Shown here piece by piece: positions 2,199-58,800 of a stretch of 64,000 nucleotides of DNA. Position 1 is the first letter of the stretch, and each line of letters starts with the position of its first letter. The translations under genes and the position numbers were made by a program. Under the pieces are notes generated by a model. It had not been told where the DNA came from, did not search any database, and saw only the letters and a program-made list of their open reading frames with translations. The DNA comes from a plasmid: NCBI RefSeq assembly GCF_056712565.1, contig NZ_JBWXXM010000004.1; one strand, 5' to 3'.

Positions 2199-2830
2199 CC
2201 AGAATCACTGAAGAGCGCATATCAGAGATTATTTCCCGTATCGAAATGTATGGTCACGGTGCTGGATATACGGCAGATGAAGTATTGGAAATAGCCCAGC
2301 AGATGCTGGCCTTGAGACAAAAAGAGCAACATGAAAGTAATACGTGTAGATTGAATTTTGAGCATTGGCTGGAACAGCAACGCGGAAAAATCGATGTGGA
2401 CTGTGGTTGTGTGTCCACTGAAACATTCATGCACTGGCTGCGGGTAGCTTACGAGGCTGGCAACTATCCGGATATTCCGGATAGTTCGGTGCCAGCGCCA
2501 GGAAAGGGCGTCACCGGTGAACGTATCCGCATTAAGCCGCATGTTTATCGCGAACTGGTTAACCGTCTCCACGATACAGCGATCAAGTGTGCTGGCACCC
2601 AGCAATTACGAGAAAGAATTAGCCGTGTTTTGGGCGACGTTATTACACCAGATCATCATAAACAAGCCGAGAAAAGTGACCTGGAAAGGTGTCACCTTGA
2701 GGCGGCATTAAACATTAAGCCGGGGCATACGCTTGGCATTATTGATGCACTATTGGTTCATAAGATGGCCAGGGCTTTATTGCCGCTGGTGGCTGAAAAG
2801 CATGAGGTGGACCATGCCAACGAAAGCTGA
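2180..2830 (+). CDS. hypothetical protein (216 aa)
   Basis: ORF track; co-directional tight spacing with neighbours. Confidence 0.4.
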   Translation: MAQKEMTRITEERISEIISRIEMYGHGAGYTADEVLEIAQQMLALRQKEQHESNTCRLNFEHWLEQQRGKIDVDCGCVSTETFMHWLRVAYEAGNYPDIPDSSVPAPGKGVTGERIRIKPHVYRELVNRLHDTAIKCAGTQQLRERISRVLGDVITPDHHKQAEKSDLERCHLEAALNIKPGHTLGIIDALLVHKMARALLPLVAEKHEVDHANES

Positions 2831-3081
2831 ATTACAGGTGCGCGTAGATGAGCTGAAAAAGAGAACGCGAGCCTCAAAAAAATGCTGTCGCGGGCGGAAA
2901 GGGAATTATCAGGCAAATTATTGCCAGAAGAACTGCCACCAGCAGATATACTAGATCGAGTGTCCCAGTGGATGAAGTCTTTTGGTTTACCGTGGGAGGC
3001 TTTTTGGTGCTACGACCATCGCAGATGGTGTGATGAACTTGATAGCAATTTTCCCTACTTTGCGGAAGGGAACACCTGCCC

Positions 3082-3432
3082 TCAATGCAGGGGATAGCAT
3101 TTGACGAAATCGATCACCCTATCCTGAACTTCAGAAAGAAGGTCTTTTTCACGCGCCAGGACGTCAGGATATTGACGTTCTGGCCTTACCAGATGCCGGA
3201 GCTTCCCATTAAGCAGAATGGCCTCAGAAAACACTTTTACGCTGTGCTTTATCCCCTCTGTTTCACTTTTCAGCGTCAAAATAAAGCGCAATTGCTTATT
3301 AGCCTGATTCGGATTCAATACACGAATTTGCAGTTCGTCTATGCTGTTTCGCAATGGGATTGATGCCACCACACTGGTGCAGTCTCTGATTGTCTGAATT
3401 GAACGGCTAACATTGAGAACGTTATTGTGCAT
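3082..3432 (-). CDS. hypothetical protein (116 aa), lxr-position relative to hot/humD
   Basis: ORF track; position only. Confidence 0.3.
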   Translation of the reverse strand: MHNNVLNVSRSIQTIRDCTSVVASIPLRNSIDELQIRVLNPNQANKQLRFILTLKSETEGIKHSVKVFSEAILLNGKLRHLVRPERQYPDVLAREKDLLSEVQDRVIDFVKCYPLH

Positions 3433-3464
3433 GTGCCTGATCCACTAACTCCTGGAGGTTTCTT

Positions 3465-3716
3465 GTGTCAGATCGAAATATAGCAGCTAAAAGCCAGGAA
3501 GAGCGAGACAAGGTGAACGTAGACCTTGCCGCCAGCGGCGTTGCTTACAAAGAACGGCTGAATATACCTGTGATTGCAGAGCAGGTGGCCCGTGAGCAAC
3601 CGGAAAACCTGCGCGCCTATTTCATGGAACGGCTACGGCACTACCGGCAGTTAAGCCTCCAGTTGCCAAAAGGGAGCGATCCGGTGTATCAGAACGAGGA
3701 TGCACCAAAAAAATAA
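3465..3716 (+). CDS. hot: Hot, homologue of DNA polymerase III theta subunit (HolE)
   Basis: 83-aa product with [39 protein letters not shown] resembling theta subunit; P1-like synteny hot-humD-phd-doc. Confidence 0.75.
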
Positions 3717-3802
3717 CGGCAAGATGGGGGAGAAATGTGATTAGCCCCCAGCGTGGCGCGCCTACAAACCCCGCTTTCACAAACTATGCCTTTTCAATGT
3801 AT

Positions 3803-6246: not shown

Positions 6247-6699
6247 ATGTTACTTAACTGGCAGGGACGCCACTTCATGGAAATAAATCACTCACGAATA
6301 ACATCGTACGAGATTGCGGATTACATGATCCGCACTAAATCTCTTCTATCAGCGAAAGAACTCGCAGCAATTCTTGAAAAGGAATACCCGCATCTGGATG
6401 TCGATAAGCGCGATGTTTATCTGCGCTTAAAGGCTATCGCTGTGTCTAAGTATTCGTCTGTTTTGATTGATGACAGTACACGCCCACGTAGATTTCAGAT
6501 CCACTCTCTGAATCCTGAATTCTTTCGCCGCAGCCGCGCTCCGCGCCGGTTTGATGAAAAACTCCAGAACGAACTCTATATGACGCAGGACGAAAAGGAA
6601 CGCCGGGAGCACCAGCCTTGGGTGATGGCGCGTCAACTTTTCAATAAGGTGGTCCGTCAGCACCGTCATTACGGTAATGCCACATCCGCACGTATCTGA
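6247..6699 (+). CDS. late promoter activator (Lpa)-position protein, 150 aa
   Basis: Immediately upstream of pacA with a C1-operator-like site in front, as for P1 lpa; identity by synteny only. Confidence 0.45.
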   Translation: MLLNWQGRHFMEINHSRITSYEIADYMIRTKSLLSAKELAAILEKEYPHLDVDKRDVYLRLKAIAVSKYSSVLIDDSTRPRRFQIHSLNPEFFRRSRAPRRFDEKLQNELYMTQDEKERREHQPWVMARQLFNKVVRQHRHYGNATSARI

Positions 6700-6785: not shown

Positions 6786-7978
6786 GTGACCTGGGACGAT
6801 CACAAGAAGAATTTTGCTCGCCTGGCGCGAGATGGTGGTTACACCATCGCACAATATGCCGCCGAGTTTAATCTCAACCCAAACACCGCACGTCGTTATC
6901 TCCGTGCATTCAAAGAAGACACCGGAACAGCGGACAGCCGTAAGCCAAATAAGCCTGTCAGAAAACCACTAAAAAGCATGATCATTGATCACGCTAATGA
7001 TCAACGTGCAGGTGATCACATTGTGGCTGAAATGGCTGAAAAACAAAGAGTTAATGCTGTTGTCAGTGCCGCAGTCGAGAACGCGAAGCGCCAGAATAAG
7101 CGCATAAATGATCGTTCTGATGATCATGACGTGATCACCCGCGCCCACCGGACCTTACGTGATCGCCTGGAACGCGACACCCTGGATGATGATGGTGAAC
7201 GCTTTGAATTCGAAGCTGGCGATTACCTGATAGATAACGTTGAAGCGCGGAAGGCCGCGCGCGCTATGTTGCGTCGGTCCGGGGCTGATGTTCTGGAAAC
7301 CACTCTTCTGGAAAAGTCTCTCTCTCATCTCCTTATGCTGGAGAACGCCAGGGATACGTGTATTCGCTTGGTTCAGGAAATGCGCGATCAGCAAAAAGAC
7401 GATGATGAAGGAACTCCGCCTGAATACCGTATCGCGAGCATGCTAAACAGCTGTTCCGCGCAGATAAGCAGCCTGATCAACACCATTTACAGCATCCGGA
7501 ATAACTATCGAAAAGAAAGCCGGGAGGCGGAAAAGCACGCTTTGTCTATGGGGCAAGCTGGCATTGTAAGCTGGCATACGAACGAAAGCGTGAAAACAAC
7601 TGGTCAGTGCTGGAGGCAGCTGAATTCATCGAGGCGCATGGAGGGAAAGTACCGCCCCTGATGCTGGAGCAAATCAAAGCCGATCTGCGTGCTCCTAAGA
7701 CCAATACCGATGATGAGGAAAGGCAAACAGCCGTCGGTGGCCCTTCTCTTGAAGATCTGGACAAAGTTGCGCGAGAACGGGCCGCCAACCGCCGCGCCGA
7801 TGCCGCATTGTGGATTGAGCAGCGTAGGGAAGAAATCGCCGATATCGTTGATACAGGCGGTTATGGAGATGTTGATACTGAAGGTGTATCAAACGACCCA
7901 TGGCTGGAACAAGACCTGGACGAAGACGAGGAGGAAGACGAAGAAGTTACCCGCAAGCTATACGGGGATGATGATTAA
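6786..7978 (+). CDS. pacA: terminase small subunit PacA, reading frame broken in this sequence (ORFs 6786-7661 and 7607-7978)
   Basis: Contains the pac hexamer cluster; directly precedes pacB; total span 1193 nt (one short of a multiple of 3); the second frame reads continuously upstream to about 7580. Confidence 0.65.
6979..7137. other. pac packaging site: 4 + 3 TGATCA/G hexamers flanking the cleavage region
   Basis: TGATCA at 6979, 6986, 6998, 7013 and TGATCG/TGATCA at 7109, 7121, 7132; each contains a Dam GATC; the 4+3 layout is that of P1 pac. Confidence 0.75.
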
Positions 7979-14617: not shown

Positions 14618-15754
14618 ATGAAAGCAATGGGGAATGAAGTTTATCAAAGTCAAAAATGCAAGTTGAAATATTCAAAATCTCAAATTGATAGGGCTGCTCA
14701 ATTGATAAGGCACGGGTGTAGTGACGAAGAAAGGCAGCAATCTATTGAAATGATACAAAATTTCCGTGAGCTGCATCTTTATCCATTAATGCTCATGAAA
14801 AATCATTTAGCAAGAGCAGCTGCTAAGGTTGACAAGGACAAAAAGATTCTCGTTGCAAGAAGACTTAAGCGACTTTCTACCATAATAGATAAACTAGAGC
14901 GTCCTAGTCTTGATGGAGGCAGAACTAGCAATGCAATTAAATTAACACGGATGCAGGACGTTGGCGGATGTAGGGCCATTGTCAGAAACTTAGACCAGTT
15001 GATACAGCTAAAGGAACGTCTTTTAAAAAGCAAATCTGTTCATAGGATTGTTAAAGAGTATGATTATCTTACTCCCAAAGACAGCGGCTATAGTGGAATC
15101 CACCTTGCATACAGTTGCTTCGATCAGAAAGAGGATCAATATCCGTGGCGAAAAACAAAGATTGAGATACAGTTAAGAACTCAATTGCAGCATGCTTGGG
15201 CTACCAGCCTTGAAATAATTGATACCCTTGAAGGTATCAAGCTGAAAACTTCAAGTGAAGGGCATCCAGAATGGAGACGATTTTTCTATCTAGCCGGATG
15301 TCTTGTAGCGCACGACGAAAAAGCCTGCACTCTTGATGAGCTAGTTGTATCTCAGTATGAAGGCGAGCTTAAAGAGCTGGAACGGACTTTATCTGTACGG
15401 AGGAAACTAAGCACATACACCATCGCCTTAAATTTAACTTCTGACGCGAATTTGATTAAGAAGTTGCCAAAAAATCATAAGGGGCATTACTTAGTAACAA
15501 TGAGAAATGCAGAAAACAAGCCCAATACAAAAAACAAAAAAATGTTCCTAGTGTCTGTTCGCGCATTTAAAACAAAAGAAGCAGATGAAGCCCTTGAGGC
15601 CTTAAATAAAGACGATTCTAATCCTAATGTATTGATATCTGTTCTCGTTGCTACAGATAACATTAAGTCACTAAAAAAAGCCTACCCCAACTATTTTGGC
15701 TCAACAAACCAGTTTACAAAATTCTTAGATAAGCATCTTCGTAACGAAGGATAG
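14618..15754 (+). CDS. RelA/SpoT-domain nucleotidyltransferase (toxSAS-like), candidate fused toxin-antitoxin of the CapRel type
   Basis: 378-aa product with RLKRLSTIIDKLER, DVGGCRAIV (DxxGxR), DYLTPKDSGYSGIH and EIQLRTQLQHAWA (ExQxRT..HxW) motifs; no neighbouring antitoxin ORF; AT-rich flanks; Cys-poor Lys/Asn-rich C-terminal third. Confidence 0.7.
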   Translation: MKAMGNEVYQSQKCKLKYSKSQIDRAAQLIRHGCSDEERQQSIEMIQNFRELHLYPLMLMKNHLARAAAKVDKDKKILVARRLKRLSTIIDKLERPSLDGGRTSNAIKLTRMQDVGGCRAIVRNLDQLIQLKERLLKSKSVHRIVKEYDYLTPKDSGYSGIHLAYSCFDQKEDQYPWRKTKIEIQLRTQLQHAWATSLEIIDTLEGIKLKTSSEGHPEWRRFFYLAGCLVAHDEKACTLDELVVSQYEGELKELERTLSVRRKLSTYTIALNLTSDANLIKKLPKNHKGHYLVTMRNAENKPNTKNKKMFLVSVRAFKTKEADEALEALNKDDSNPNVLISVLVATDNIKSLKKAYPNYFGSTNQFTKFLDKHLRNEG

Positions 15755-35535: not shown

Positions 35536-35609
35536 AAGTTCCCTCCTACGTTGTCAGGAGGTAATGGTATGCAAAGTAACTTCTCAACCGGTTATGTTGC
35601 ATAAGAGAC

Positions 35610-35873
35610 TTACCTATTCAACCGACTTTTGGAACCTTCAATAATAAGCCTGCTATTGGCGCTGAAAATAAGAACCATGCAGCTCTGAAGGCTTTCATTC
35701 ATGTCCTTATATTCCGCGAGATACATGCCAATAAAGCCAGCAAGTACGGCGGAAATACATTCGGCCAGCAATTTCTTGCATGAAGACTCGTAACGGTTTT
35801 CACATAGCCCACTCAAATACGAATACACCCCACCAAGAAGGGATAACATCACGATATGTACATAAAATGTCAT
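35610..35873 (-). CDS. small membrane protein (87 aa), first gene of the lyd/dar operon
   Basis: Two hydrophobic segments (VHIVMLSLLGGVYSYLSGL, ISAVLAGFIGMYLA). Confidence 0.35.
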   Translation of the reverse strand: MTFYVHIVMLSLLGGVYSYLSGLCENRYESSCKKLLAECISAVLAGFIGMYLAEYKDMNESLQSCMVLIFSANSRLIIEGSKSRLNR

Positions 35874-36000
35874 TTTTTACCTATACAACAGTAAGTTGAA
35901 CAACATTTGAGAACGGTATGCACTTTGTGATTTCCACACACACTGGTTTTGTTAATTAAAACCTGTAGCTTGCAATAAATAACGATAGTGGGCAGAAAAT

Positions 36001-36185
36001 ATGCTAATAGGCTATGTACGCATATAGACAAATGAACAAAACACAGCTATGCAGTGAAAAGCACTTGAAAGCGCAGGATGTGAGCTAATTTTTGCGAATA
36101 AGGCGAGCAGCAAAAAAGCTGGGCACCCTGGGTTAAAAAAGGTTCTGCGTATGCTTTCCAGAGGTGATACCCTAGTCTCGGACTA
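36001..36185 (+). pseudogene. degenerate 5' fragment of a Cin/Gin/Hin-family serine invertase gene, inverted relative to the adjacent invertase
   Basis: Translation MLIGYVRI*TNEQNTAMQ*KALESAGCELIFANKASSKKAGHPGLKKVLRMLSRGDTLVSD* aligns to invertase residues 1-61 with two in-frame stops. Confidence 0.6.
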
Positions 36186-36212
36186 GGGACAACATTTCGA
36201 GAACAGTTTTCA

Positions 36213-36641
36213 TTAGCGGTCAGCAGGCGCTAGATACATCGAATTGATGTGCCGCGCGATAAATGTACCTATTCTATCAAGATAAATTACACCGACGCGG
36301 CAAGCACCCATGACATGAAAAAAGAAACGCCCCATGGGTGTTGATGTGTCAATACTGTCTGTCAGACTACGGAAATTAACACCTTTTTCCCGCAACTCCT
36401 CTATAAGCGTGATAAGGTGTTTCATACTTCTGCCAAGCCTATCCAGCTTCCAGACAACCAGCGTATCTCCTTCTGATAACGTTCTGAGCAGCTTTTTCAA
36501 GCCTGGTCTGGCTGACTTTGTTCCGCTTATTTTATCTTCAAAAATCAGTTCACATCCTGCGCAGTTCAGTGCATTTCTTTGTAAATCTGTGTTTTGGTCA
36601 TTTGTTGACACACGAATGTAGCCAATTTGCATGAAAAACAA
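36213..36641 (-). CDS. cin: Cin/Min-family serine DNA invertase, C-terminally truncated (homology ends after about residue 113 at about nt 36301)
   Basis: MQIGYIRVSTNDQNTDLQRNALNCAGCELIFEDKISGTKSARPGLKKLLRTLSEGDTLVVWKLDRLGRSMKHLITLIEELREKGVNFRSLTDSIDTSTPMGRFFFHVMGA matches the Gin/Hin/Cin catalytic domain; the next 29 residues are unrelated and the HTH domain is absent. Confidence 0.75.
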   Translation of the reverse strand: MFFMQIGYIRVSTNDQNTDLQRNALNCAGCELIFEDKISGTKSARPGLKKLLRTLSEGDTLVVWKLDRLGRSMKHLITLIEELREKGVNFRSLTDSIDTSTPMGRFFFHVMGACRVGVIYLDRIGTFIARHINSMYLAPADR

Positions 36642-36692
36642 CCTCTTTGTTTAGTTAAAAATACATCGTTGGTATAGGTAGGGATTAAGACT

Positions 36693-36717
36693 AAAACGTT
36701 GGTTTGGGGGAAGGCTC
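36693..36717 (+). other. invertase crossover site xs-1 (cix/mix-like), starts cassette tfc-1
   Basis: aaaacgTTggtttgggggaaggctc; core AACGTTGGTTT resembles the Hin/Gin/Cin family core AAACC-NN-GGTTT; 62 bp from the divergent invertase start. Confidence 0.55.
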
Positions 36718-37171
36718 GGCACTGCCCGTTGGTGTACCTGTTCCATGGCCCTCAGCCACACCACCAACGGGGTGGCTGAAATGCAATGGTGCAGCATTTT
36801 CTTCTGAAAAGTACCCAAATCTGGCAAAGGTTTACCCTACTAATAAATTGCCGGATCTACGGGGCGAATTTATTCGCGGCTGGGATGACGGGCGGGGGAT
36901 TGACTCTGGCCGTAATTTATTATCTGCACAGAATGATGCAATTCAGAATATTGTTGGTTCTTTCGGGCGTACTCAGCTTTTTAGAGATGTACTTAGTTCA
37001 GGGCCATTTAGTCAACATGGTCAAGTATTATCTACAGGCCTAAAGGAAACGGAAATTATTGAGGGTTATGGCTCTTATAACTGGACATTCGACGCCTCTC
37101 GCTCAGTTCGTACAGCATCTGAAACCCGCCCCCGTAATATTGCATTTAATTACATCGTAAGGGCGGCATAA
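36704..37171 (+). CDS. silent tail-fibre C-terminal cassette tfc-1 (TTG start, no promoter)
   Basis: Begins (M/L)GEGSALPVGVPVPWPSATPPTGWLKCNGAAFSSEKYPNLAKVYPTNKLPDLRGEFIRGWDDGRG, same as the junction of S, then a unique 80-aa core, ends ETRPRNIAFNYIVRAA. Confidence 0.65.
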   Translation: MGEGSALPVGVPVPWPSATPPTGWLKCNGAAFSSEKYPNLAKVYPTNKLPDLRGEFIRGWDDGRGIDSGRNLLSAQNDAIQNIVGSFGRTQLFRDVLSSGPFSQHGQVLSTGLKETEIIEGYGSYNWTFDASRSVRTASETRPRNIAFNYIVRAA

Positions 37172-37195
37172 AAACGTTGGTTTGGGGGAAGGCTC
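37171..37195 (+). other. crossover site xs-2
   Basis: aaaacgttggtttgggggaaggctc directly after the tfc-1 stop. Confidence 0.55.
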
Positions 37196-37658
37196 AGCAT
37201 TGCCCGTTGGCGTGCCCGTTCCGTGGCCCTTAGAAACACCGCCAACGGGGTGGCTGAAATGTAACGGAGCAGCATTTTCTTCTGAAATGTATCCCAAACT
37301 GGCAAAGGCCTACCCCACCAATAAATTACCGGATTTACGGGGAGAATTTATTCGCGGCTGGGATGATGGGCGCGGGGTGGATGCGGGACGTGCTTTATTG
37401 AGCATTCAGACAGGAATGCTGGAAAAGCACCGACATATTGTTGTAGCCAATGATGGTTACGACACAAAAGATGAATGGGAGCTGGCGACAATTTTCAAAA
37501 AAACATACACACAAGGACGGGGGCTTGATGCCTCAAATACAGGAGGGAATTTGATTCCATCACCGACACTTCATTCTCGAGGGAGTATTGGTAATACTGG
37601 CGGGAGTGAAACCCGTCCACGAAATATCGCATTTAATTACATCGTAAGGGCGGCATAA
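37182..37658 (+). CDS. silent tail-fibre C-terminal cassette tfc-2
   Basis: Same conserved head (PLETPP/SSEMYPKLAKAYPT allele) and tail ETRPRNIAFNYIVRAA, distinct core. Confidence 0.65.
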   Translation: MGEGSALPVGVPVPWPLETPPTGWLKCNGAAFSSEMYPKLAKAYPTNKLPDLRGEFIRGWDDGRGVDAGRALLSIQTGMLEKHRHIVVANDGYDTKDEWELATIFKKTYTQGRGLDASNTGGNLIPSPTLHSRGSIGNTGGSETRPRNIAFNYIVRAA

Positions 37659-37682
37659 AAACGTTGGTTTGGGGGAAGGCTC
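37658..37682 (+). other. crossover site xs-3
   Basis: aaaacgttggtttgggggaaggctc. Confidence 0.55.
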
Positions 37683-38133
37683 TGCACTGCCTGTTGGTGT
37701 GCCCGTTCCGTGGCCCTTAGAAACACCACCAACGGGCTGGCTAAAATGCAATGGTGCAGCATTTTCTTCTGAAATGTATCCCAAACTGGCAAAGGCCTAC
37801 CCCACCAATAAATTACCGGATTTACGCGGTGAGTTTATCCGTGGTTGGGATGATGGGCGAGGTGTGGATGCGGGAAGGGTCATCTTAAGCATACAGGGGT
37901 GGTTACAGGAAGTCATTATCATAATATTCGGTCATGGGACGCGTGGATAACACGGTATTGGTGCCATTAATTGACATGAGGGGGGGATAGTCTGTTGTCG
38001 ACAGATAACGCCGTCAGGCATTTTCAGCGATTAATGGTAAATTTCACCAGTCAACTCTGTAGGTGATGGTATAAATTTTGTTGCTGTCAGGCCGCGAAAT
38101 ATCGCATTTAATTACATCGTAAGGGCGGCATAA
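37669..38133 (+). pseudogene. degenerate duplicate of cassette tfc-4 (frameshifted cassette tfc-3)
   Basis: Near-identical to 38144-38602 at DNA level but with indels (ggttacagg vs ggttaacagg); ORF stops after 93 codons although the terminal RPRNIAFNYIVRAA coding block is present at 38090-38133. Confidence 0.55.
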
Positions 38134-38157
38134 AAACGTTGGTTTGGGGGAAGGCTC
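38133..38157 (+). other. crossover site xs-4
   Basis: aaaacgttggtttgggggaaggctc. Confidence 0.55.
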
Positions 38158-38602
38158 TGCACTGCCTGTTGGTGTGCCCGTTCCGTGGCCCTTAGAAACA
38201 CCACCAACGGGCTGGCTAAAATGCAATGGTGCAGCATTTTCTTCTGAAATGTATCCCAAACTGGCAAAGGCCTACCCCACCAATAAATTACCGGATTTAC
38301 GCGGTGAGTTTATCCGTGGTTGGGATGATGGGCGAGGTGTGGATGCGGGAAGGGTCATCTTAAGCATACAGGGGTGGTTAACAGGAAGTCATTATCATAA
38401 TATTCGGTCATGGGACGCGTGGGATAACACGGTATTGGTGCCAAATGACAGAGGGGGGGATAGTCTGTTGTCGACAGATAACGCCGTCCGGCAAGGAGCG
38501 ATTAATGGTAAATTTACCAGTCAATACAGAACGGAGTTATCTGGGGGGAATGAAACCCGCCCACGTAACATTGCCTTCAATTATATTGTGAGAGCAGCAT
38601 AA
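38144..38602 (+). CDS. silent tail-fibre C-terminal cassette tfc-4, coupled to a tail fibre assembly gene
   Basis: 152-aa cassette; stop overlaps the ATG of the following tfa gene (taATGg). Confidence 0.65.
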   Translation: MGEGSALPVGVPVPWPLETPPTGWLKCNGAAFSSEMYPKLAKAYPTNKLPDLRGEFIRGWDDGRGVDAGRVILSIQGWLTGSHYHNIRSWDAWDNTVLVPNDRGGDSLLSTDNAVRQGAINGKFTSQYRTELSGGNETRPRNIAFNYIVRAA

Positions 38603-39213
38603 TGGATAATGCGATATTAAATAGCGAACTTATAGCCATACAGGCAGGAAACATTATCGTTTATAACTATGATGGTGGTAATCGGGAATATATTTCTGCA
38701 TCAACTGAATATCTTGCTGTTGGCGTTGGTATTCCGGCAAATTCTTGTTTGGATGCTCCAGGCTCACATAAAGCAGGTTATGCGATTCTCCGTTCAGAGG
38801 ATTTAAGTTCATGGGAGTATGTGCCAGATCATCGTGGCGAAACTGTCTATAGCATTGACACTGGGAATCCCGAAGAAATCACGGTGTTGGGTGACTATCC
38901 GGAAAATACAACCACTATCGCCCCGCTAACACCATACGACAAATGGGATGGAGAGAAATGGGTGGTTGATACTGAGGCTCAACATAGTGCAGCTGTAGAG
39001 GCAGCAGAAACAAAACGTCAGTCATTGATTGATACTGCGATGGATTCCATTAGTCTGATTCAGTTGAAATTACGGGCTGGACGGAAGTTGACGCAGGCAG
39101 AAACCACGCAGCTTAACTCCGTGCTAGATTATATAGACGAGCTGAACGCGATGGATTTAACCACGGCACCAGATCTCAACTGGCCTGAAAAACAACTTTC
39201 TACAGCCAGTTGA
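38602..39213 (+). CDS. tail fibre assembly chaperone (Tfa / U-like)
   Basis: 203-aa product; Tfa-like C-terminal region DYIDELNAMD...WPE; translationally coupled to tfc-4, as U follows Sv in Mu/P1. Confidence 0.65.
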   Translation: MDNAILNSELIAIQAGNIIVYNYDGGNREYISASTEYLAVGVGIPANSCLDAPGSHKAGYAILRSEDLSSWEYVPDHRGETVYSIDTGNPEEITVLGDYPENTTTIAPLTPYDKWDGEKWVVDTEAQHSAAVEAAETKRQSLIDTAMDSISLIQLKLRAGRKLTQAETTQLNSVLDYIDELNAMDLTTAPDLNWPEKQLSTAS

Positions 39214-39218
39214 TATAA

Positions 39219-39716
39219 TTAATCCGCCCTCACAATATAATTAAATGCAATATTACGAGGGCGGGTTTCTAAGCCAGCAGTACCTAAATTAGCTACGGAC
39301 TGTTTATATGTTTTAAAAGTTCCATAATTAGGGGCTGGCAATCCTGCATCGCTTGTGTTCCCCCATCTGATAACTCCCGTATTACCACTAGTAGCCCATG
39401 CCTCGTCAAAGTAGAAATTAATTGAGCGGTCAGTTGCTACGGTTGATTTTGACGGTAATCCGTGAGCATGATCCTCCGTTGCATATCCTTGCTCGCTTAA
39501 AATAGAGCGACCAGAGTCAATCCCTCGCCCATCATCCCAGCCACGGATAAACTCACCGCGTAAATCAGGTAATTTTAACGTTGGGTAAACCTTTGCCAGA
39601 TTTGGGTACTTTTCAGAAGAAAATGCTGCACCATTGCATTTCAGCCACCCCGTTGGCGGTGTGGCTGAGGGCCATGGAATAGGTACACCAACGGGCAGCG
39701 CCGAGCCTTCCCCTAA
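39219..39716 (-). CDS. silent tail-fibre C-terminal cassette tfc-5 (no start codon: TTA at the crossover site)
   Basis: Open frame LGEGSALPVGVPIPWPSATPP...ETRPRNIAFNYIVRAD; missing from the ORF track because it begins TTA-GGG instead of TTG-GGG. Confidence 0.55.
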   Translation of the reverse strand, partial: LGEGSALPVGVPIPWPSATPPTGWLKCNGAAFSSEKYPNLAKVYPTLKLPDLRGEFIRGWDDGRGIDSGRSILSEQGYATEDHAHGLPSKSTVATDRSINFYFDEAWATSGNTGVIRWGNTSDAGLPAPNYGTFKTYKQSVANLGTAGLETRPRNIAFNYIVRAD

Positions 39717-39727
39717 ACCAACGTTTT
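39703..39727 (-). other. crossover site xs-5 (TTA variant, like the site in S)
   Basis: Plus strand gagccttcccctaaaccaacgtttt. Confidence 0.55.
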
Positions 39728-40155
39728 CATGCCGCCCTTACGATATAATTAAACGCAATGTTACGAGGACGAATGGTTACATAATTAACCCCATCACCTC
39801 GTGAAGGCCCTGCAAATGAAAAACGGGAAAATCCTGGTTGGTTAGAAACAATTTGGTCATAGTTATTGATTGAATGACCAGACCCAATGTCGAAATTACC
39901 TCCGTAATGAGAAAAACTTGTACCATCCTGCCCTGAAAGCAGGGTACGTCCCGCATCAATCCCGCGCCCATCATCCCAGCCACGGATAAATTCACCGCGT
40001 AAATCCGGTAATTTATTGGTGGGGTAGGCTTTTGCCAGTTTGGGATACATTTCAGAAGAAAATGCTGCACCATTGCATTTTAGCCAGCCCGTTGGTGGTG
40101 TTTCTAAGGGCCACGGAACGGGCACACCAACAGGCAATGCTGAGCCTTCCCCCAA
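39727..40155 (-). CDS. silent tail-fibre C-terminal cassette tfc-6
   Basis: 142-aa; conserved head and tail, unique core. Confidence 0.65.
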   Translation of the reverse strand: MGEGSALPVGVPVPWPLETPPTGWLKCNGAAFSSEMYPKLAKAYPTNKLPDLRGEFIRGWDDGRGIDAGRTLLSGQDGTSFSHYGGNFDIGSGHSINNYDQIVSNQPGFSRFSFAGPSRGDGVNYVTIRPRNIAFNYIVRAA

Positions 40156-40166
40156 ACCAACGTTTT
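40142..40166 (-). other. crossover site xs-6
   Basis: Plus strand gagccttcccccaaaccaacgtttt. Confidence 0.55.
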
Positions 40167-40669
40167 TATGCCGCCCTTACGATGTAATTAAATGCAACGT
40201 TGCGAGGGCGAGTTTCTGTACCTACATTTCCACTAATTTCACCATAACGTTTAACACTACGAGAGCTAATAGCTCGTAGTGAGGAAGGCACCTTATGACC
40301 GGGTTCGTCCGTTTTAACTATTCCCCCGTCACCGTATGTAGCTAGTATTCCTGGATTTACGCCTTCCCGTGCACTTCCTGCGGCGAGTCCGTCCCCTGTC
40401 CATAATTCCATATAGTGTGCATGGTCCAAAATTGTGTGTGGCTGCCAATTAAGCAAAGCGCGGCCAGCATCCACCCCGCGCCCATCATCCCAGCCACGGA
40501 TAAATTCACCGCGTAAATCAGGTAATTTTAACGTTGGGTAAACCTTTGCCAGATTTGGGTACTTTTCAGAAGAAAATGCTGCACCATTGCATTTCAGCCA
40601 CCCCGTTGGCGGTGTGGCTGAGGGCCATGGAATAGGTACACCAACGGGCAGCGCCGAGCCTTCCCCTAA
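40166..40669 (-). CDS. silent tail-fibre C-terminal cassette tfc-7 (no start codon; ORF track shows only its GTG-started distal 102 aa)
   Basis: Continuous frame LGEGSALPVGVPIPWPSATPP...GRGVDAGRALLNWQ...ETRPRNVAFNYIVRAA. Confidence 0.55.
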   Translation of the reverse strand, partial: LGEGSALPVGVPIPWPSATPPTGWLKCNGAAFSSEKYPNLAKVYPTLKLPDLRGEFIRGWDDGRGVDAGRALLNWQPHTILDHAHYMELWTGDGLAAGSAREGVNPGILATYGDGGIVKTDEPGHKVPSSLRAISSRSVKRYGEISGNVGTETRPRNVAFNYIVRAA

Positions 40670-40680
40670 ACCAACGTTTT
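40656..40680 (-). other. crossover site xs-7 (TTA variant)
   Basis: Plus strand gagccttcccctaaaccaacgtttt. Confidence 0.55.
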
Positions 40681-41141
40681 TATGCCGCCCTTACGATATA
40701 ATTAAAGGCAATATTACGAGGACGGTTTTCATTAGCTGTTGGCACGACACGAGAGGCGTCGAATCCAAGGTCATCGGTTTTGCCTATATCAGTTGTGTTA
40801 TTCGGCATTCTCGCAGATCGTGTTCCTGCATCATAAAAAGCCCCTCTGATTGCATCAAAAGACATGCCAATCCCGCCATCTGCGAACCCCTCAATATTTC
40901 TTATTGCATCCCCCTGTGAAGATAATAATTGTCGCCCGGCATCCACACCACGTCCGTCATCCCAGCCACGAATAAATTCACCGCGTAAATCCGGCAATTT
41001 ATTAGTAGGGTAAACCTTTGCCAGATTTGGGTACTTTTCAGAAGAAAATGCTGCTCCGTTACATTTCAGCCACCCCGTTGGCGGAGTGGCTGAGGGCCAC
41101 GGAACAGGTACGCCAACAGGCAATGCTGAGCCTTCCCCCAA
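40680..41141 (-). CDS. silent tail-fibre C-terminal cassette tfc-8
   Basis: 153-aa; conserved head and tail, unique core. Confidence 0.65.
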   Translation of the reverse strand: MGEGSALPVGVPVPWPSATPPTGWLKCNGAAFSSEKYPNLAKVYPTNKLPDLRGEFIRGWDDGRGVDAGRQLLSSQGDAIRNIEGFADGGIGMSFDAIRGAFYDAGTRSARMPNNTTDIGKTDDLGFDASRVVPTANENRPRNIAFNYIVRAA

Positions 41142-41152
41142 ACCAACGTTTT
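41128..41152 (-). other. crossover site xs-8
   Basis: Plus strand gagccttcccccaaaccaacgtttt. Confidence 0.55.
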
Positions 41153-41505
41153 TATGTGGCCCTTACAATGTAATTAAAAGCAACGTTGCGGGGGCGCATT
41201 GATATCCATGCCCCGGTAAAATTATCCTCTGCCGTCCTTTGAGTGCCTGTTATGGAGTTATCTGATGATGCTGGAACATAATCGCTATTATCTCCTGCTT
41301 TAGGATTAGCAGGGTTTCCAACAGTTATAACAGAATCAGCAGCGATACCTACTTTGACATTAGTAGTCAGATCGACACCGTAATAATCCTGCAAAGCTGT
41401 ACGAATAAATGTTGCAGTCTGACCACTTAGCAATGAACGCCCTGTATCAATCCCTCTCGAATCATCCCAACCACGGATAAACTCACCGCGTAAATCAGGT
41501 AATTT
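41152..41505 (-). CDS. distal part of the tail-fibre cassette now in expression position (tfc-9), in frame with S but separated from it by a TAA at 41506-41508
   Basis: Frame continues from the S stop: *KLPDLRGEFIRGWDDSRGIDTGRSLLSGQTATFIR...SMRPRNVAFNYIVRAT. Confidence 0.55.
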   Translation of the reverse strand, partial: KLPDLRGEFIRGWDDSRGIDTGRSLLSGQTATFIRTALQDYYGVDLTTNVKVGIAADSVITVGNPANPKAGDNSDYVPASSDNSITGTQRTAEDNFTGAWISMRPRNVAFNYIVRAT

Positions 41506-43155
41506 TTACGTGGGGTAAACCTTTGCCAGATTTGGGTACTTTTCAGAAGAAAATGCTGCTCCGTTACATTTCAGCCACCCCGTTGGTGGTGTGGCGGAGG
41601 GCCATGGAACAGGTACACCAACGGGCAGCGCCGAGCCTTCCCCTAAACCAAGGTAATCAAGAACGCTATGAATACTGGTCTTACCAAGAATGGCGCGTCC
41701 AACACTTGTCAATGCAGTTAACGCGGCACGATCAACACCTGTGAAATAAGGGAGTTTATCTGCTGCTGTAGCTAGTGCCGCTAGAGCAGTGAGCGTAGCG
41801 TCTGCCGCTTGCTTTCCATTAGCCAAATCATATGCAGCCTTGACAGCTTTCGGTGTGGCGGCCAGCACTTCAGACGTGCTGTTAGTGGCACTACTGAGCT
41901 GAGTGATGCCTTTCGCTGTCAATGAAGCTGTTGGCACACCAGTGATCTGATTCCAGGGATGTGTATGACTGGATGGTGCCTTTCCGGCTGCTAGATCGTA
42001 TGCAGCTTTAACCGCTTTTGGAGTTGCAGCTAATGTTTCAGAAGTGCTGTTGGTGTCGCTACTGAGCTGAACTATCCCTTTTTGTGTCGTGGTTGCATCC
42101 TGGGCTGTATACTTCCCGTTAGCCAAATCATATGCAGCCTTGACAGCTTTCGGTGTGGCGGCCAGCACTTCGGACGTACTGTTAGTGGCACTACTGAGCT
42201 GAGTGATGCCTTTCGCTGTCAATGAAGCTGTTGGCACACCAGTGATCTGATTCCAGGGATGTGTATGACTGGATGGTGCCTTTCCGGCTGCTAGATCGTA
42301 TGCAGCTTTAACCGCTTTTGGAGTTGCAGCTAATCTGTTGGTGTCGCTACTGAGCTGAACTATCCCTTTTTGTGTCGTGGTTGCATCCTGGGCTGTATAC
42401 TTCCCGTTAGCCAAATCATATGCAGCCTTGACAGCTTTCGGTGTGGCGGCCAGCACTTCGGACGTACTGTTAGTGGCACTACTGAGCTGAACTAATCCCT
42501 TTTGCGTTGTGCTTGCATCCTGCGCCGTATACTTGCTTTTCGCCAGATCGTAGGCTTTTTTAACTGCCAGCGAACTCGCAGCAACATCACTTCTGGTACT
42601 GGTTACAGAGTCTGAAATATCAATGCCGATCGTGCGGTTGATACGCTCGGATGTATCAATCATCTCTTGAGTAATGGTAGATACGCCAGCAGGGATATTC
42701 ACCGTACAAACCAGCAGTTCCCCATCACCTAACTGATATGAATCGGTATAGGTTCTGGCAACAAATTCAGCTGCATGAATATGTGACGCGGTATTAACCT
42801 GATAGGTATCTTCTCCAAGAAGGTATCTTCCCTTCAGCACAATTGCATATTTCTTGCCTGCGTTAAGTGCAAGAGAGATATCCTTACGATGCTGAATAGT
42901 TACCTGGTAGAATTCACCAATATCCACTGACGCCGCGCCAGCGGTTTTATCTCCATCCACTGAGGTGATTAACAGGTTCATCCCACCGCCAGGCTTAGGC
43001 AAGAAACCAGCATAAAATCCCGGGTCAACAATTCCCCTGAATTTTCGGTTTAGAGCGGCTGACAGATATGGTTCGTGGTATTGCACATCAGCCACCAGAG
43101 CCAACGACTCGGGTGATGGGTAAGTAACCGATGTAACAACTGTAACGTCATTCAT
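41506..43155 (-). CDS. tail fibre protein S (constant N-terminal part plus start of the expressed cassette), ends at an in-frame ochre codon inside the conserved cassette head
   Basis: Start MNDVTVV behind AAGGA; internal repeats of the phage tail-fibre repeat motif (SSATNSTSEVLAATPKAVKAAYDLA); ends ...LGEGSALPVGVPVPWPSATPPTGWLKCNGAAFSSEKYPNLAKVYPT*. Confidence 0.7.
   Translation of the reverse strand: MNDVTVVTSVTYPSPESLALVADVQYHEPYLSAALNRKFRGIVDPGFYAGFLPKPGGGMNLLITSVDGDKTAGAASVDIGEFYQVTIQHRKDISLALNAGKKYAIVLKGRYLLGEDTYQVNTASHIHAAEFVARTYTDSYQLGDGELLVCTVNIPAGVSTITQEMIDTSERINRTIGIDISDSVTSTRSDVAASSLAVKKAYDLAKSKYTAQDASTTQKGLVQLSSATNSTSEVLAATPKAVKAAYDLANGKYTAQDATTTQKGIVQLSSDTNRLAATPKAVKAAYDLAAGKAPSSHTHPWNQITGVPTASLTAKGITQLSSATNSTSEVLAATPKAVKAAYDLANGKYTAQDATTTQKGIVQLSSDTNSTSETLAATPKAVKAAYDLAAGKAPSSHTHPWNQITGVPTASLTAKGITQLSSATNSTSEVLAATPKAVKAAYDLANGKQAADATLTALAALATAADKLPYFTGVDRAALTALTSVGRAILGKTSIHSVLDYLGLGEGSALPVGVPVPWPSATPPTGWLKCNGAAFSSEKYPNLAKVYPT
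41633..41658 (-). other. crossover site xs-9 inside S (constant/variable junction)
   Basis: Plus strand gagccttcccctaaaccaaggtaatc; core ACCTTGGTTTAGG, reverse-complement-symmetric around TT like Hin/Gin/Cin-family sites. Confidence 0.55.
41815..42530. repeat. about 300-bp tandem direct repeats (2.4 copies) inside S
   Basis: 41821-42120 and 42121-42405 nearly identical (second copy lacks 15 bp near 42336), third partial copy to about 42530. Confidence 0.7.
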
Positions 43156-51914: not shown

Positions 51915-52043
51915 TTACCCGATTCTACGAGTTGTCATTTGTTACCGGTCAGTCTACACATTTCAGATGCTGCGTTAAAAAACCCAAGTACTTCAAGTAG
52001 CACATCGTCATCAACACCCAGCCCCAAGATACGGTGATAAAAT

Positions 52044-53078
52044 TCAAGCCTTAAGAGGCTTTGTGTATGTTCGTGTAATCCATCCAGTAATAAACTCGTC
52101 CCCTGATTTAACCTGCACGAAAAGCCATTGGCGATCTTTTTTATCTAAAACAGCCACTATAGTATTTTTGCCAATGCATTCAATCACCTCACTATTTATA
52201 GAAGGACTGACGTGTAATCTTACGTTCTCACCAGTTATAAAACGAAAACCATTGAGATCTTCCCAACTAATTTCTTTGTTTTCTTTAATTAATTGTTGTT
52301 TTGATATTGGTTTATCCTCAAACAGAGATATAAAATATGATTCTGCCTTGTGTATTCCCAGCAAGGTTTTCTCTTTTCCGTAATCAATAAAAGCACCAAA
52401 CACAACTTGAGAAAATATAACCATTAGTAACCATTGCAGTGGATAAGGAAGCTCTTTAAATGAATCAACAAACTTTGAGCTAGGTTTATTTAATCCTTTA
52501 TTTTGAACATTACTTTTGGTGTGTGATGTTTCAGTAGCACCTTCAGCATAAGCCTGCGCAATAGATGAAATCCCCTGCTCTATTATTTGATGTAATGAAG
52601 CATTTCTTGTTCTAGCATAGTGATCTAGTACTTTCTTTATGTCTTGGCTTACATCTATTTTATAACTTGCACTTTGTTGTAATTCTTTAAGTATCGCTTG
52701 CATGTTATTTAAACCAGCTTGCTTATTAAGCACCTCAAGCTGTTTTCGTAATGGCATAGCTATTTCGGCCTGTTTCCTTAGCATTTGAATATATCTATTT
52801 GCATCATGAGGGAAAAGAGCCTGAGTCTGTTTCTGTAAAATCGCGATATGTTCACGATACTTGCTGCCTATTCCAGCCAAGTTCGGTATACTAGCCAATT
52901 GTTTTCGAAGAGAGTTACTAATTACAGCTTGTCTATTCAATCTTGGCATATTTTGAAAAGAATGTTTTTCTATTCCTAATTGTTTTTGCAAGATCGCTAC
53001 GTGATCTTTGTATGATGGAATGAGCACTGACTGTTTATACAGCAACTTCAACTCATTAGAATTAGTAATTTTTGTCAT
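52044..53078 (-). CDS. membrane-anchored protein with N-terminal ILQKQ-type repeats and C-terminal SH3-like domain (sim-position cluster)
   Basis: 344-aa; repeats HVAILQKQ / HIAILQKQ / LRKQ; TM segment LPYPLQWLLMVIFSQVVFGAFIDYG; C-terminal GENVRLHVSPSINSEVIECIGKNTIVAVLDKKDRQWLFVQVKSGDEFITGWITRTY; AT-rich codon usage. Confidence 0.5.
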   Translation of the reverse strand: MTKITNSNELKLLYKQSVLIPSYKDHVAILQKQLGIEKHSFQNMPRLNRQAVISNSLRKQLASIPNLAGIGSKYREHIAILQKQTQALFPHDANRYIQMLRKQAEIAMPLRKQLEVLNKQAGLNNMQAILKELQQSASYKIDVSQDIKKVLDHYARTRNASLHQIIEQGISSIAQAYAEGATETSHTKSNVQNKGLNKPSSKFVDSFKELPYPLQWLLMVIFSQVVFGAFIDYGKEKTLLGIHKAESYFISLFEDKPISKQQLIKENKEISWEDLNGFRFITGENVRLHVSPSINSEVIECIGKNTIVAVLDKKDRQWLFVQVKSGDEFITGWITRTYTKPLKA

Positions 53079-53152
53079 ATTATTCCATTTCTATAATAGA
53101 ATATTACGCAACCAATGTTTTATTGATTGCGTTAATCTTTAACACAGAAAGA

Positions 53153-53629
53153 TCATTTGCCTCGTTTAATACATCCATCCATTTTGGCTTGTTGATACAA
53201 CTTACTTAGCCCAGAAAGAGGGAATGTAGCAATTTTTTCATTATCAACATAAGCATCAATCATATTAGCATTTGAATCTGCTGCATCTTGCCAAAAGGCA
53301 TACCACCAAGAATCTCCAACCATTGATCCAAGATTGCTAAAAGGATATTGATCACCATCTATAGTTAATACTATTTTATTCTTGTCAGCATTATACTCTT
53401 TTTTATTATTCGACGAACTTAGCAACAAGCCTAAACTACCTGCACTATCTGGTGAACCATACATGAATCCCATATCACATAAAAAACTTATCTTATCACC
53501 ATTATGATTATGGATTGTATATTCTCTCCCCCCTCTCTCTTCAATTACATTCCATTGTAGAGGATCAATTTTTGCAAATGTTCCTGCTGAAACTAACGAT
53601 ACAAATAATAAAAACCATCTCATATTCAT
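53153..53629 (-). CDS. secreted/periplasmic protein with signal peptide (sim-position cluster)
   Basis: N-terminus MNMRWFLLFVSLVSAGTFAKIDP (n-h-c signal peptide with AxA-like cleavage context). Confidence 0.5.
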   Translation of the reverse strand: MNMRWFLLFVSLVSAGTFAKIDPLQWNVIEERGGREYTIHNHNGDKISFLCDMGFMYGSPDSAGSLGLLLSSSNNKKEYNADKNKIVLTIDGDQYPFSNLGSMVGDSWWYAFWQDAADSNANMIDAYVDNEKIATFPLSGLSKLYQQAKMDGCIKRGK

Positions 53630-53651
53630 TCTTTTCGCTTCTTATCTGTAA

Positions 53652-54002
53652 TTATTCTGCAATATCATTTGCCCATTGCACGGCAGCAAAATGAGTACCC
53701 AAACCACTCAGGAAAGCAATTACCCCCAAAACAATACTTGCTGCTGTTGATTCAAACAAAGTACCAATACTATAGCCAATAGCTCCCCATACTAAGCTAA
53801 ATACAATCATCAATGGTATTGCTAGAAATTTTATTCTTAAACTAAAAATCAGTCCAAGAAAAGAACCGCCAAAGGCCCACCATGATTTAGACATTAAACC
53901 TATCAGTATTGACAGAATTCCTATTTCAATAAAGAGAATATTAGATTGCTCTTCATTGAATTTCGCATTTGTTACACCTTTACGAACATGTTCAGATGAC
54001 AT
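53652..54002 (-). CDS. small polytopic membrane protein (sim-position cluster)
   Basis: 116-aa, three hydrophobic helices (ILFIEIGILSILIGLM, FLGLIFSLRIKFLAIPLMIVFSLVWGAIGY, AASIVLGVIAFLSGLG). Confidence 0.45.
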   Translation of the reverse strand: MSSEHVRKGVTNAKFNEEQSNILFIEIGILSILIGLMSKSWWAFGGSFLGLIFSLRIKFLAIPLMIVFSLVWGAIGYSIGTLFESTAASIVLGVIAFLSGLGTHFAAVQWANDIAE

Positions 54003-54148
54003 GATTAACTATCTCCTGCCACAGATAAAACGCCTTAAAATAACATTTTGTAGCATAAAGTTTCACCATGCAATGGTCAAAATCTTTGACCCATATCAAT
54101 TAAACTCATACATTTTAGTTACCAGAGAAATAATTTACATGGTTGCAA

Positions 54149-54165
54149 GTTGCTCTAATTATTTT
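54149..54165 (+). promoter_or_regulatory. C1 operator-like 17-mer in the promoter region of the sim-position cluster
   Basis: gttgctctaattatttt, 14/17. Confidence 0.4.
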
Positions 54166-54292
54166 ATTTTTTTAGCTTCATATGCTACATTAACTTGCTT
54201 GCGTGCTAATGCATTTTCGGTTTATCCTAAACAGGCATCTTAGTAAAACGGATGCCGGGATTGGAACCCCGGATAATGCAAAAGGCGACATA

Positions 54293-54314
54293 GACGCCAA
54301 AAGCGTCTTTTTTT
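54293..54314 (+). terminator. intrinsic terminator on the plus strand with no protein gene upstream
   Basis: gacgc caaaa gcgtc followed by T7. Confidence 0.5.
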
Positions 54315-54717
54315 GTGTCATGCCATCGCACAACCATACGTAGCACATAGCTCCGAGATCAATGGTAGTGCTGGCTGGGCTGCCGAAAGGCAGGCCGGTT
54401 CCCTTTTGCGCCGGTAGTTCCAACCCAGTCAGTGCTACCGCCATTGAGATTGGAACCTCACGCGGTAGCTCCTTAAATTAGCAAAAGGAGGCTGCCATTG
54501 TGGCTACTATCCCTACCCCTACTCATCCTGAATTTATCTGGCGCTTTTACTCCTGCCAAAAACACCACTATCACTTCGTTATCGCAGCAACAGAAGACGA
54601 AGCACGCTCTCAATTGCCTGATGGCCCCTGCATTTTTACTGCCCGTTTTTCAACTAACTCGCGCAATTCACTTAGTTACTGGAGCCTCCCCTTCTCTGCC
54701 GACGTTCAGGGGGGTTT

Positions 54718-57890: not shown

Positions 57891-58072
57891 TACAATCGTT
57901 GCGGGTGCTTGAGGCTATCTGCTTCAGGCATTACCCGAAAAGCAGATAGAAGAAAGCCCCAGATAACATTACGCGTCCTGCAAGACGCTTAACATTAATC
58001 TGAGGCCATATCTATGCTTAGCATACGTAGATTAACCCTCTCCCATTTTAAGGAGCAAGGAATTTTTTACTG

Positions 58073-58705
58073 CTATGCCGCATTTCCAATTATGGATTCA
58101 GCGACCAGAACAACCCCATGCTTACTTCGATCTGGGTGTTCACTCCATATCTCGGATTCAGGAATACTTACCCCGTCATAGCAAACACGTTCGCCGTCAA
58201 ACGGGTAATACTGAGCGGCATCGGTGTCGAGGATAAACACTTTTAGCTCGGAAGAGCGACGGGCGATATGTTGCCAAAGAGCTTTTCCACCTTCGTATTG
58301 CTCATTATCACTGAGCAAAACAACACCAGCTTTTGAGGCTACGGTTTCGTAAACAAAAGTAGCTAAACCGACATCCCGGACAGTTCCATCAACCACGATA
58401 CCTTCAATCTGGGCAACATCGCTATCCTCCCAGAACTTCCTTACCAGTACGCCTTCAAGCTGCGGGCGACGTTGAAGTTCAAGAGTAGCGACAACCTTAT
58501 GCCGCATATCACCATCGATAACAGAAGGCGCAGCCTCTATTACAGCTGCAAATGGGGTTTTGGAATCCCATATAACCTGGTAAAGCACACCCTGGATGGT
58601 AACTCCGTCCAGGATCGAAAATCGACGAGCGACAGTACCCGGGGAGTACGACATTGGAATCACAGCCATTTTAGAGTCCCCCTTTAACAGTACAGGCACA
58701 AACAT
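58073..58705 (-). CDS. hypothetical structural-block protein (210 aa)
   Basis: ORF track; AT-rich promoter-like region upstream. Confidence 0.35.
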   Translation of the reverse strand: MFVPVLLKGDSKMAVIPMSYSPGTVARRFSILDGVTIQGVLYQVIWDSKTPFAAVIEAAPSVIDGDMRHKVVATLELQRRPQLEGVLVRKFWEDSDVAQIEGIVVDGTVRDVGLATFVYETVASKAGVVLLSDNEQYEGGKALWQHIARRSSELKVFILDTDAAQYYPFDGERVCYDGVSIPESEIWSEHPDRSKHGVVLVAESIIGNAA

Positions 58706-58800
58706 CTACCTCAATAATTGTAGTTTATTAGAACATTAATAATCTAACATAAAACTCCAGACAATGTTATCGATGCATGTTTATATAAAATAGTTATAAA

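Follow-up and report, generated by a model that had tools for sequence, protein, structure and literature searches.

The tail-fibre invertase gene min of the P1-like phage-plasmid described here is cut short by a deletion of 249 bp, and the degenerate invertase sequence that lies beside it in inverted orientation is the relic of a different gene, cin. We put the probability at roughly 0.8 that these two features go back to two independent events: namely, an old one that left the cin relic and is shared with relatives, and a recent, private deletion in min. The term window is used for the whole stretch of plasmid DNA that was analysed, which is 64 kb (64,000 nucleotides) long, and all coordinates refer to it unless another sequence is named.

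The plasmid and its closest relative

The window is part of a P1-like IncY phage-plasmid and carries a multiple-inversion tail-fibre module of the Min type known from p15B. To the left of the invertase, the genes follow the P1 order, darA-hdf-lydB-lydA-lydC. The E. coli plasmid pEH09-18-41_2 (NZ_CP063505.1) is collinear with the window over most of its length at 95-99% identity; as the closest complete relative, it served as the reference for the comparison of min, and L001 coordinates are those of its locus. Around min the two sequences are ~99.7% identical with the 249-bp gap as the only one, and the leftward flank of 7.7 kb aligns without a gap. When 49 ORFs were compared with those of pEH09-18-41_2, no lesion was found in 47, and the damaged ones were min and one fibre cassette. 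The features around the invertase are as follows.

35610..35873, minus strand: lydC-like holin gene (ORF), collinear with P1 lydC at ~85% identity
35874..36000, plus strand: what is left of the region between lydC and cin in P1, with the positions at which the cin promoter is annotated, from alignment with P1
36001..36186, plus strand: psi-cin, a pseudogene relic of P1-type cin, with 89% nucleotide identity to P1 cin
36187..36301: spacer specific to p15B-type plasmids, from psi-cin to the min 3' end, identical in relatives
36301..36302: deletion junction, at which 249 bp of the relatives (L001 2403-2651) are missing, with a microhomology of 1 nt (A)
36302..36632, minus strand: min codons 1-110, which encode the N-terminal portion of the catalytic domain of a serine recombinase, with 100% identity to the intact protein in relatives
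36538..36614, minus strand: segment of min (gene nt 19-95) homologous to the Cin recombinational enhancer, with no mismatch to L001
36695..36708, plus strand: first crossover site, core AACGTTGGTTTGGG, adjoining the min 5' end and forming the left end of the invertible region

The lydC-like gene at 35610..35873 anchors the left side of the locus in the P1 backbone order lydB-lydA-lydC-cin. A scan of 35600-36800 for promoters and terminators gave nothing relevant above shuffled expectation.

Away from the invertase, the segment 14470-15792 is specific to the window, and pEH09-18-41_2 has 5-kb type III restriction-modification genes at that place. The 378-aa product of the ORF at 14618-15754 (+) matches PDC-S33, a candidate defence family of PADLOC, at E 6.7e-86; its match to a model for small alarmone synthetases (GTP diphosphokinase, E 8e-9) is weak and far below the cut-off. 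Four further segments (51944-54526, 58042-58798, 1-2448, and 2793-3791) have no megablast match in pEH09-18-41_2, and three ORFs on the minus strand in 52044-54002 (344, 158, and 116 aa) have no match in NCBIfam or PADLOC.

The truncated invertase gene

As sequenced, min runs from an ATG start at 36632 to 36213 on the minus strand (36213-36632) and encodes 139 aa; the ORF listing has it as 36213-36641 (-) with a TTG start and 142 aa, and the start of the relatives' gene is the ATG at 36632. The first 110 residues of the product are 100% identical to those of the intact 190-aa invertase in relatives and are followed by 29 unrelated residues, a foreign tail that results from reading through the spacer (36213-36301). 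The nucleophile, Ser9, is kept within the YIRVST motif, and this motif aligns with that of Mu Gin, the retained residues corresponding to Gin residues 1-110. In Pfam searches, the ORF of the window matched Resolvase (model positions 2-120 of 145, E 4.7e-40) with no match to an HTH domain, while the 190-aa invertase of the relative gave Resolvase (2-144) together with HTH_7 (E 7.6e-15). Intact Min aligns with Mu Gin from end to end (3UJ3, 4M6F), and its residues 139-183 align with the DNA-binding domain of Hin (1HCR).

When the intact protein was used as a tblastn query, only two places in the window were hit, which are the truncated gene and the plus-strand copy at 36001-36177, and residues 111-190 found no match anywhere in the 64 kb. 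The gene of the window thus lacks a complete helix E and the C-terminal HTH_7 by which a Din-family invertase is recognized. With no HTH match and with residues 111-190 missing, it is therefore a pseudogene of the Din family and not a functional member. The initial annotation had described a catalytic domain that gives way to unrelated residues and a stop, and the Resolvase-only match with 29 foreign residues agrees with that description; its residue 113 is our residue 110 plus the three extra residues of the TTG start. The missing HTH-coding sequence, which it had reported for the neighbourhood of the gene, is missing from the whole window in the tblastn search.

A private deletion of 249 bp

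Across the locus, the alignment to pEH09-18-41_2 contains three substitutions, all of which are in the relic region, and one gap of 249 bp. Lost with it is the coding sequence for LAEMERELIVERT...HPVEKRQTQSEL, which is min codons 111-190, as well as the stop codon and the 7 nt that follow. Judging from alignments to the Gin and Hin structures, the deletion takes most of helix E and the entire DNA-binding domain. Near the breakpoints, direct or inverted words reach 6 nt at most, and the breakpoints do not resemble the crossover core AACGTTGGTTTGGG; within 35850-36720, the only repeat is a 12-nt pair ascribed to chance. Given the microhomology of 1 nt and the lack of both a repeat and any likeness to a crossover site, the event looks like an illegitimate deletion. 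A site-specific or repeat-mediated deletion was also considered and was rejected on these same observations.

With a 301-bp query across the junction, every relative listed matches in two pieces that span 550 bp. A 60-mer centred on the junction had 0 matches in 5,426 complete E. coli genomes and 72,556 plasmids, a 32-mer on the junction had no exact match in collections of viral genomes, species-representative genomes, and metagenome contigs, and the truncated Min protein had no exact match among ~15 billion proteins. The intact 190-aa invertase (UniRef Q05517, "DNA-invertase") is found on at least 1000 contigs. The deletion is private to the sequence of the window, and its junction occurs in none of the five collections searched.

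Such a private junction might also mean that the gap is an artefact of assembly or consensus and that the real plasmid has an intact min. All relatives do have the 249 bp, the junction is absent from every other public sequence, and two related phage records carry a probable sequencing artefact, a T6-to-T5 frameshift, in the very same gene. The breakpoints are, however, located outside repeats and homopolymers, so that no usual cause of collapse applies, and the quality of the window is good, as is evident from the ungapped flank of 7.7 kb and from the 47 of 49 ORFs without a lesion. We thus consider an artefact unlikely, though with a chance large enough to be kept in mind, and treat the deletion as a probably genuine allele in what follows.

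The two phages are vB_EcoM-673R5 (L002, ON470615.2, 2408-2979) and vB_EcoM-813R1 (L007, ON470617.2, 1410-1981), in both of which min is annotated as Hin1 plus Hin2. The split has the same origin in the two records, namely the loss of one base in a T6 run within the GRFFFH codons, and is probably a homopolymer sequencing error and not a true pseudogene. Because of this shared and probably erroneous single-base loss, we did not accept Hin1/Hin2 as an independent inactivation of min.

Origin of the inverted copy

In P1 and its close relatives, the match to the window covers lydA and lydC and breaks off at ~36177. The plus-strand sequence that we call psi-cin contains cin codons 1-59 followed by 2 foreign codons and a stop; its translation is MLIGYVRI*TNEQNTAMQ*KALESAGCELIFANK...GDTLVSD*, with in-frame stops at 36025-36027 (TAG) and 36055-36057 (TGA). 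It is matched by the intact Min protein at a tblastn E-value of 1e-19, which is far beyond chance. Over 177 nt, nonetheless, psi-cin shares 89% of its positions with P1 cin and 87% with P7 cin, versus 67% (118/177) with the adjacent min. An intact cin frame of ~186 codons is absent, with the two stops and with the homology ending at codon 59, and the position and the sequence are those of an orthologous cin, collinear with lydC and the cin promoters. By its sequence, the inverted "copy" is a relic of P1-type cin and not a copy of min. The initial annotation had called it an inverted, degenerate copy of the invertase gene's own 5' end; the copy and its two stops are there, but it is not min's own, being closer to P1 cin (89%) than to min (67%).

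A stretch of psi-cin is also homologous to the cin enhancer (cin nt 19-90), and 9 of its 72 positions differ from P1. Upstream, the hexamer at 35958-35963 (+) is TAAAAC, and the aligned predicted -10 element of P1cin in P1 is TAAAAT; as the conserved final T is lost, the promoter of the relic is probably weakened.

The relic and the spacer occur together at an identity of at least 98.7% in 147 plasmid records, with no gene annotated beneath them, and ~300 P1-type plasmids match the relic part only, at 80-89% and under a genuine "recombinase family protein" gene. The 124-bp spacer is matched neither by P1 nor by chromosomal pin-type modules. In L001 and L008, the relic with the same two stops adjoins a full-length min; in L007, min beside a relic with the same stops is full-length except for the one-base homopolymer frameshift.

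Furthermore, the cin relic is already recorded in the annotation of p15B in the P1 GenBank record, where p15B (X62121) nt 7147-7408 are 89% identical to P1 31570-31832 and p15B nt 6463-6533 match the cin enhancer (cin nt 19-90) at 83% identity. The distance from the relic to the min enhancer is 614 nt in p15B and 365 nt in the window; since 365 equals 614 minus 249, the reference architecture of p15B is the intact one. Because the relic and the spacer are unchanged beside an intact min in ~147 plasmids, the relic is older than the truncation and independent of it.

Initially, the truncation and the inverted copy had instead been taken as a possible scar of a single event, in which either two invertase genes had been rearranged with each other or the assembly had gone wrong across inverted homology. 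It is true that the two 5' ends are inverted, that the relic is 115 bp from the junction, and that the amino acid identity between psi-cin and the min product reaches 63% over 59 residues. Nevertheless, the relic is of the cin type and not of the min type, it stands with its spacer unaltered in the plasmids that have an intact min, and both ends of the deletion fall outside it. What had been read as a scar is instead a simple deletion of 249 bp next to an older relic. A misassembly across the two segments is not supported either, the longest exact word shared by psi-cin and min being 13 nt and neither end of the deletion lying in repeated sequence. A single origin of the two features, by rearrangement or by misassembly, is hence highly improbable.

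A probable history of two events

We propose that, in the first event, P1-type cin and its C-segment would have given way to a pin/min-type module with its invertase, crossover sites, and cassettes. The cin gene already there would have been cut after codon 59, and its promoter region and 5' end would have stayed beside lydC and decayed. As the incoming min faces the opposite way, the two 5' ends now look like an inverted pair, and psi-cin would be the left edge of the substitution of Min for Cin. The homology to pin-type modules starts at the min 3' end and not in the spacer, which agrees with this substitution picture. In the second event, a non-homologous deletion of 249 bp would have taken min codons 111-190 and the stop codon, resulting in a read-through of 29 codons into the spacer. 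The order of the two events is what we infer from the distribution of the relic. The history of the Min substitution is based on notes in the P1 GenBank record and on Sandmeier et al. (J Bacteriol 1992), in which Min is reported to be pin/e14-related DNA that substitutes for a Cin-like system in an ancestral p15B genome.

Probable consequences for fibre switching

A pattern search with the crossover core AACGTTGGTTTGGG gave 8 matches, as compared with 0.42 expected by chance. In total, nine crossover sites are distributed over 36695-41655, four on the plus strand and five on the minus strand, in inverted orientation next to min. Besides the site at 36695..36708, they are the following.

37173, 37660, 38135, plus strand: other plus-strand crossover sites, from the pattern search
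39712-39725, 40151-40164, 40665-40678, 41137-41150, minus strand: crossover sites, from the pattern search
41642-41655, minus strand: crossover site in the constant part of the fibre gene

The stretch between the crossover sites (37173..41655) holds fibre C-terminal cassettes together with one assembly gene (38602-39213, +). In Din-family invertase genes, a Fis-dependent recombinational enhancer is located in the 5' part. This part of min, with its enhancer homologue, shows no difference from pEH09-18-41_2, and neither does the crossover site next to it.

In serine recombinases, the HTH domain is needed for binding to crossover sites, and helix E forms the interface of the dimer and the tetramer. 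Lacking the HTH domain, the truncated Min should not bind crossover sites, and lacking helix E, it should form neither dimers nor tetramers; we infer that it would be inactive in recombination. A second invertase was not found by tblastn in the 64-kb window, outside of which lie ~25 kb of the replicon and the host chromosome, and no other serine recombinase is annotated in pEH09-18-41_2, which has only a Cre-like integrase. With Min inactive and with no other invertase in the window or in the relative, the order of the cassettes is probably frozen in the sequenced isomer unless a Din-family invertase of the host acts in trans. The prediction made at the outset, of an inactive recombinase and a fibre locked in the absence of a trans-acting invertase, is thus supported by the loss of helix E and the HTH domain and by the lack of a second invertase in the window.

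Rescue in trans is plausible, however, and would depend on the host, since Din-family invertases cross-complement and since min/pin-like DNA was found in 915 of the 5,426 E. coli genomes, with 876 of its locations on chromosomes.

One might alternatively suppose that the shortened catalytic-domain protein is itself functional, for example as a dominant-negative form that blocks inversion by a host invertase. Its start, its ribosome-binding context, and its catalytic serine are all kept, but most of helix E, on which the contacts between subunits depend, is gone, the tail is nothing other than spacer read-through, and the allele is unique instead of recurrent. Such a function is improbable in the extreme, and we continue to regard the gene as inactivated.

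The fibre gene in the sequenced isomer

The cassette at 41152-41640, which is fused to the fibre, has a TAA at 41508-41510 (-) where pEH09-18-41_2 has TTA (Leu), and the fibre ORF ends there, 45 codons beyond the crossover site. An 81-mer at the TAA is matched by 133 plasmids, none of which (0/133) is identical, with 97.5% for the best. Compared with its counterpart in pEH09-18-41_2, this cassette is also 9 bp shorter through an in-frame deletion. If Min is inactive, the fibre encoded by the sequenced isomer would be a truncated one.

The sole tfa/U-like assembly gene of the invertible region, at 38602-39213 (+), is on the strand opposite to the fibre gene (~43155-41508, -), whereas the two genes run in the same direction in pEH09-18-41_2. 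With the assembly gene opposed to the fibre gene, the frozen arrangement may be a non-productive isomer. The two private lesions in the fibre-switching module and the opposed assembly gene could be taken together as a sign of selection against adsorption of virions during a shift to a plasmid-only existence, instead of two hits by chance, but we find this quite doubtful.

In the fibre shaft (41812-42490, coded on the minus strand), furthermore, there is a 300-bp tandem repeat with 2.3 copies and 95% matches. pEH09-18-41_2 has ~600 bp more of this repeat, which is an in-frame difference of ~200 residues in the constant part.

Comparison with known systems

The closest counterpart is Min of p15B from E. 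coli 15T- (X62121). Over its first 110 residues, the product of the window does not differ from the 190-aa invertase Q05517 / Pin-like. In p15B, too, the module is flanked by lydC and the fibre gene on a P1-like IncY plasmid, and it has many crossover sites and fibre C-terminal cassettes; these sites number six in p15B, compared with nine in the window. p15B also has the same psi-cin relic at a spacing from the enhancer that equals that of the window once the 249 bp are restored, and the difference is that min codons 111-190 are absent from the window. Min reportedly complements cin (Iida et al. 1990).

The Cin/C-segment system of P1 (and P7) has in common with the window the backbone order lydB-lydA-lydC-cin and the enzyme family, and P1 cin nt 1-177 and the promoter region upstream of them recur in the relic at 89% identity. 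P1, however, has an intact cin that is read in the direction of the C-segment and serves two crossover sites, whereas in the window 59 decayed codons of cin remain and min, which is normally the working invertase, faces the opposite way. Chromosomal pin-type invertases, such as that of the defective prophage e14, are 76-91% identical to min in nucleotide sequence, and in some the match takes in the adjacent fibre gene, but the homology of these modules stops at the min 3' end (L001 2406), and they have neither the spacer nor the relic.

Partial invertase ORFs with only the N-terminal catalytic domain have been described in the P1-like plasmids pSvP1, pTZ20_1P, and pJIE250-3, with a presumed loss of fibre switching (PMC6906374). 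Those cases involve IS-mediated rearrangements or large deletions in cin-type genes, whereas the window has a small, clean deletion in a min-type gene with a cassette region that is otherwise complete. The window thus contains the known p15B Min module with a private loss-of-function allele, and nothing in it falls outside the known kinds.

Significance

Beyond annotation, an ordinary broken gene of this sort has little significance. The min ORF should be annotated as a pseudogene, and the plus-strand copy as a cin relic instead of being taken as evidence of misassembly. For the P1 lineage, the relic is a useful marker of the old boundary at which a Min module replaced a Cin module. In this isolate, the prophage is probably unable to vary its host range; as sequenced, furthermore, it may not make a complete fibre, which bears on its spread by infection.
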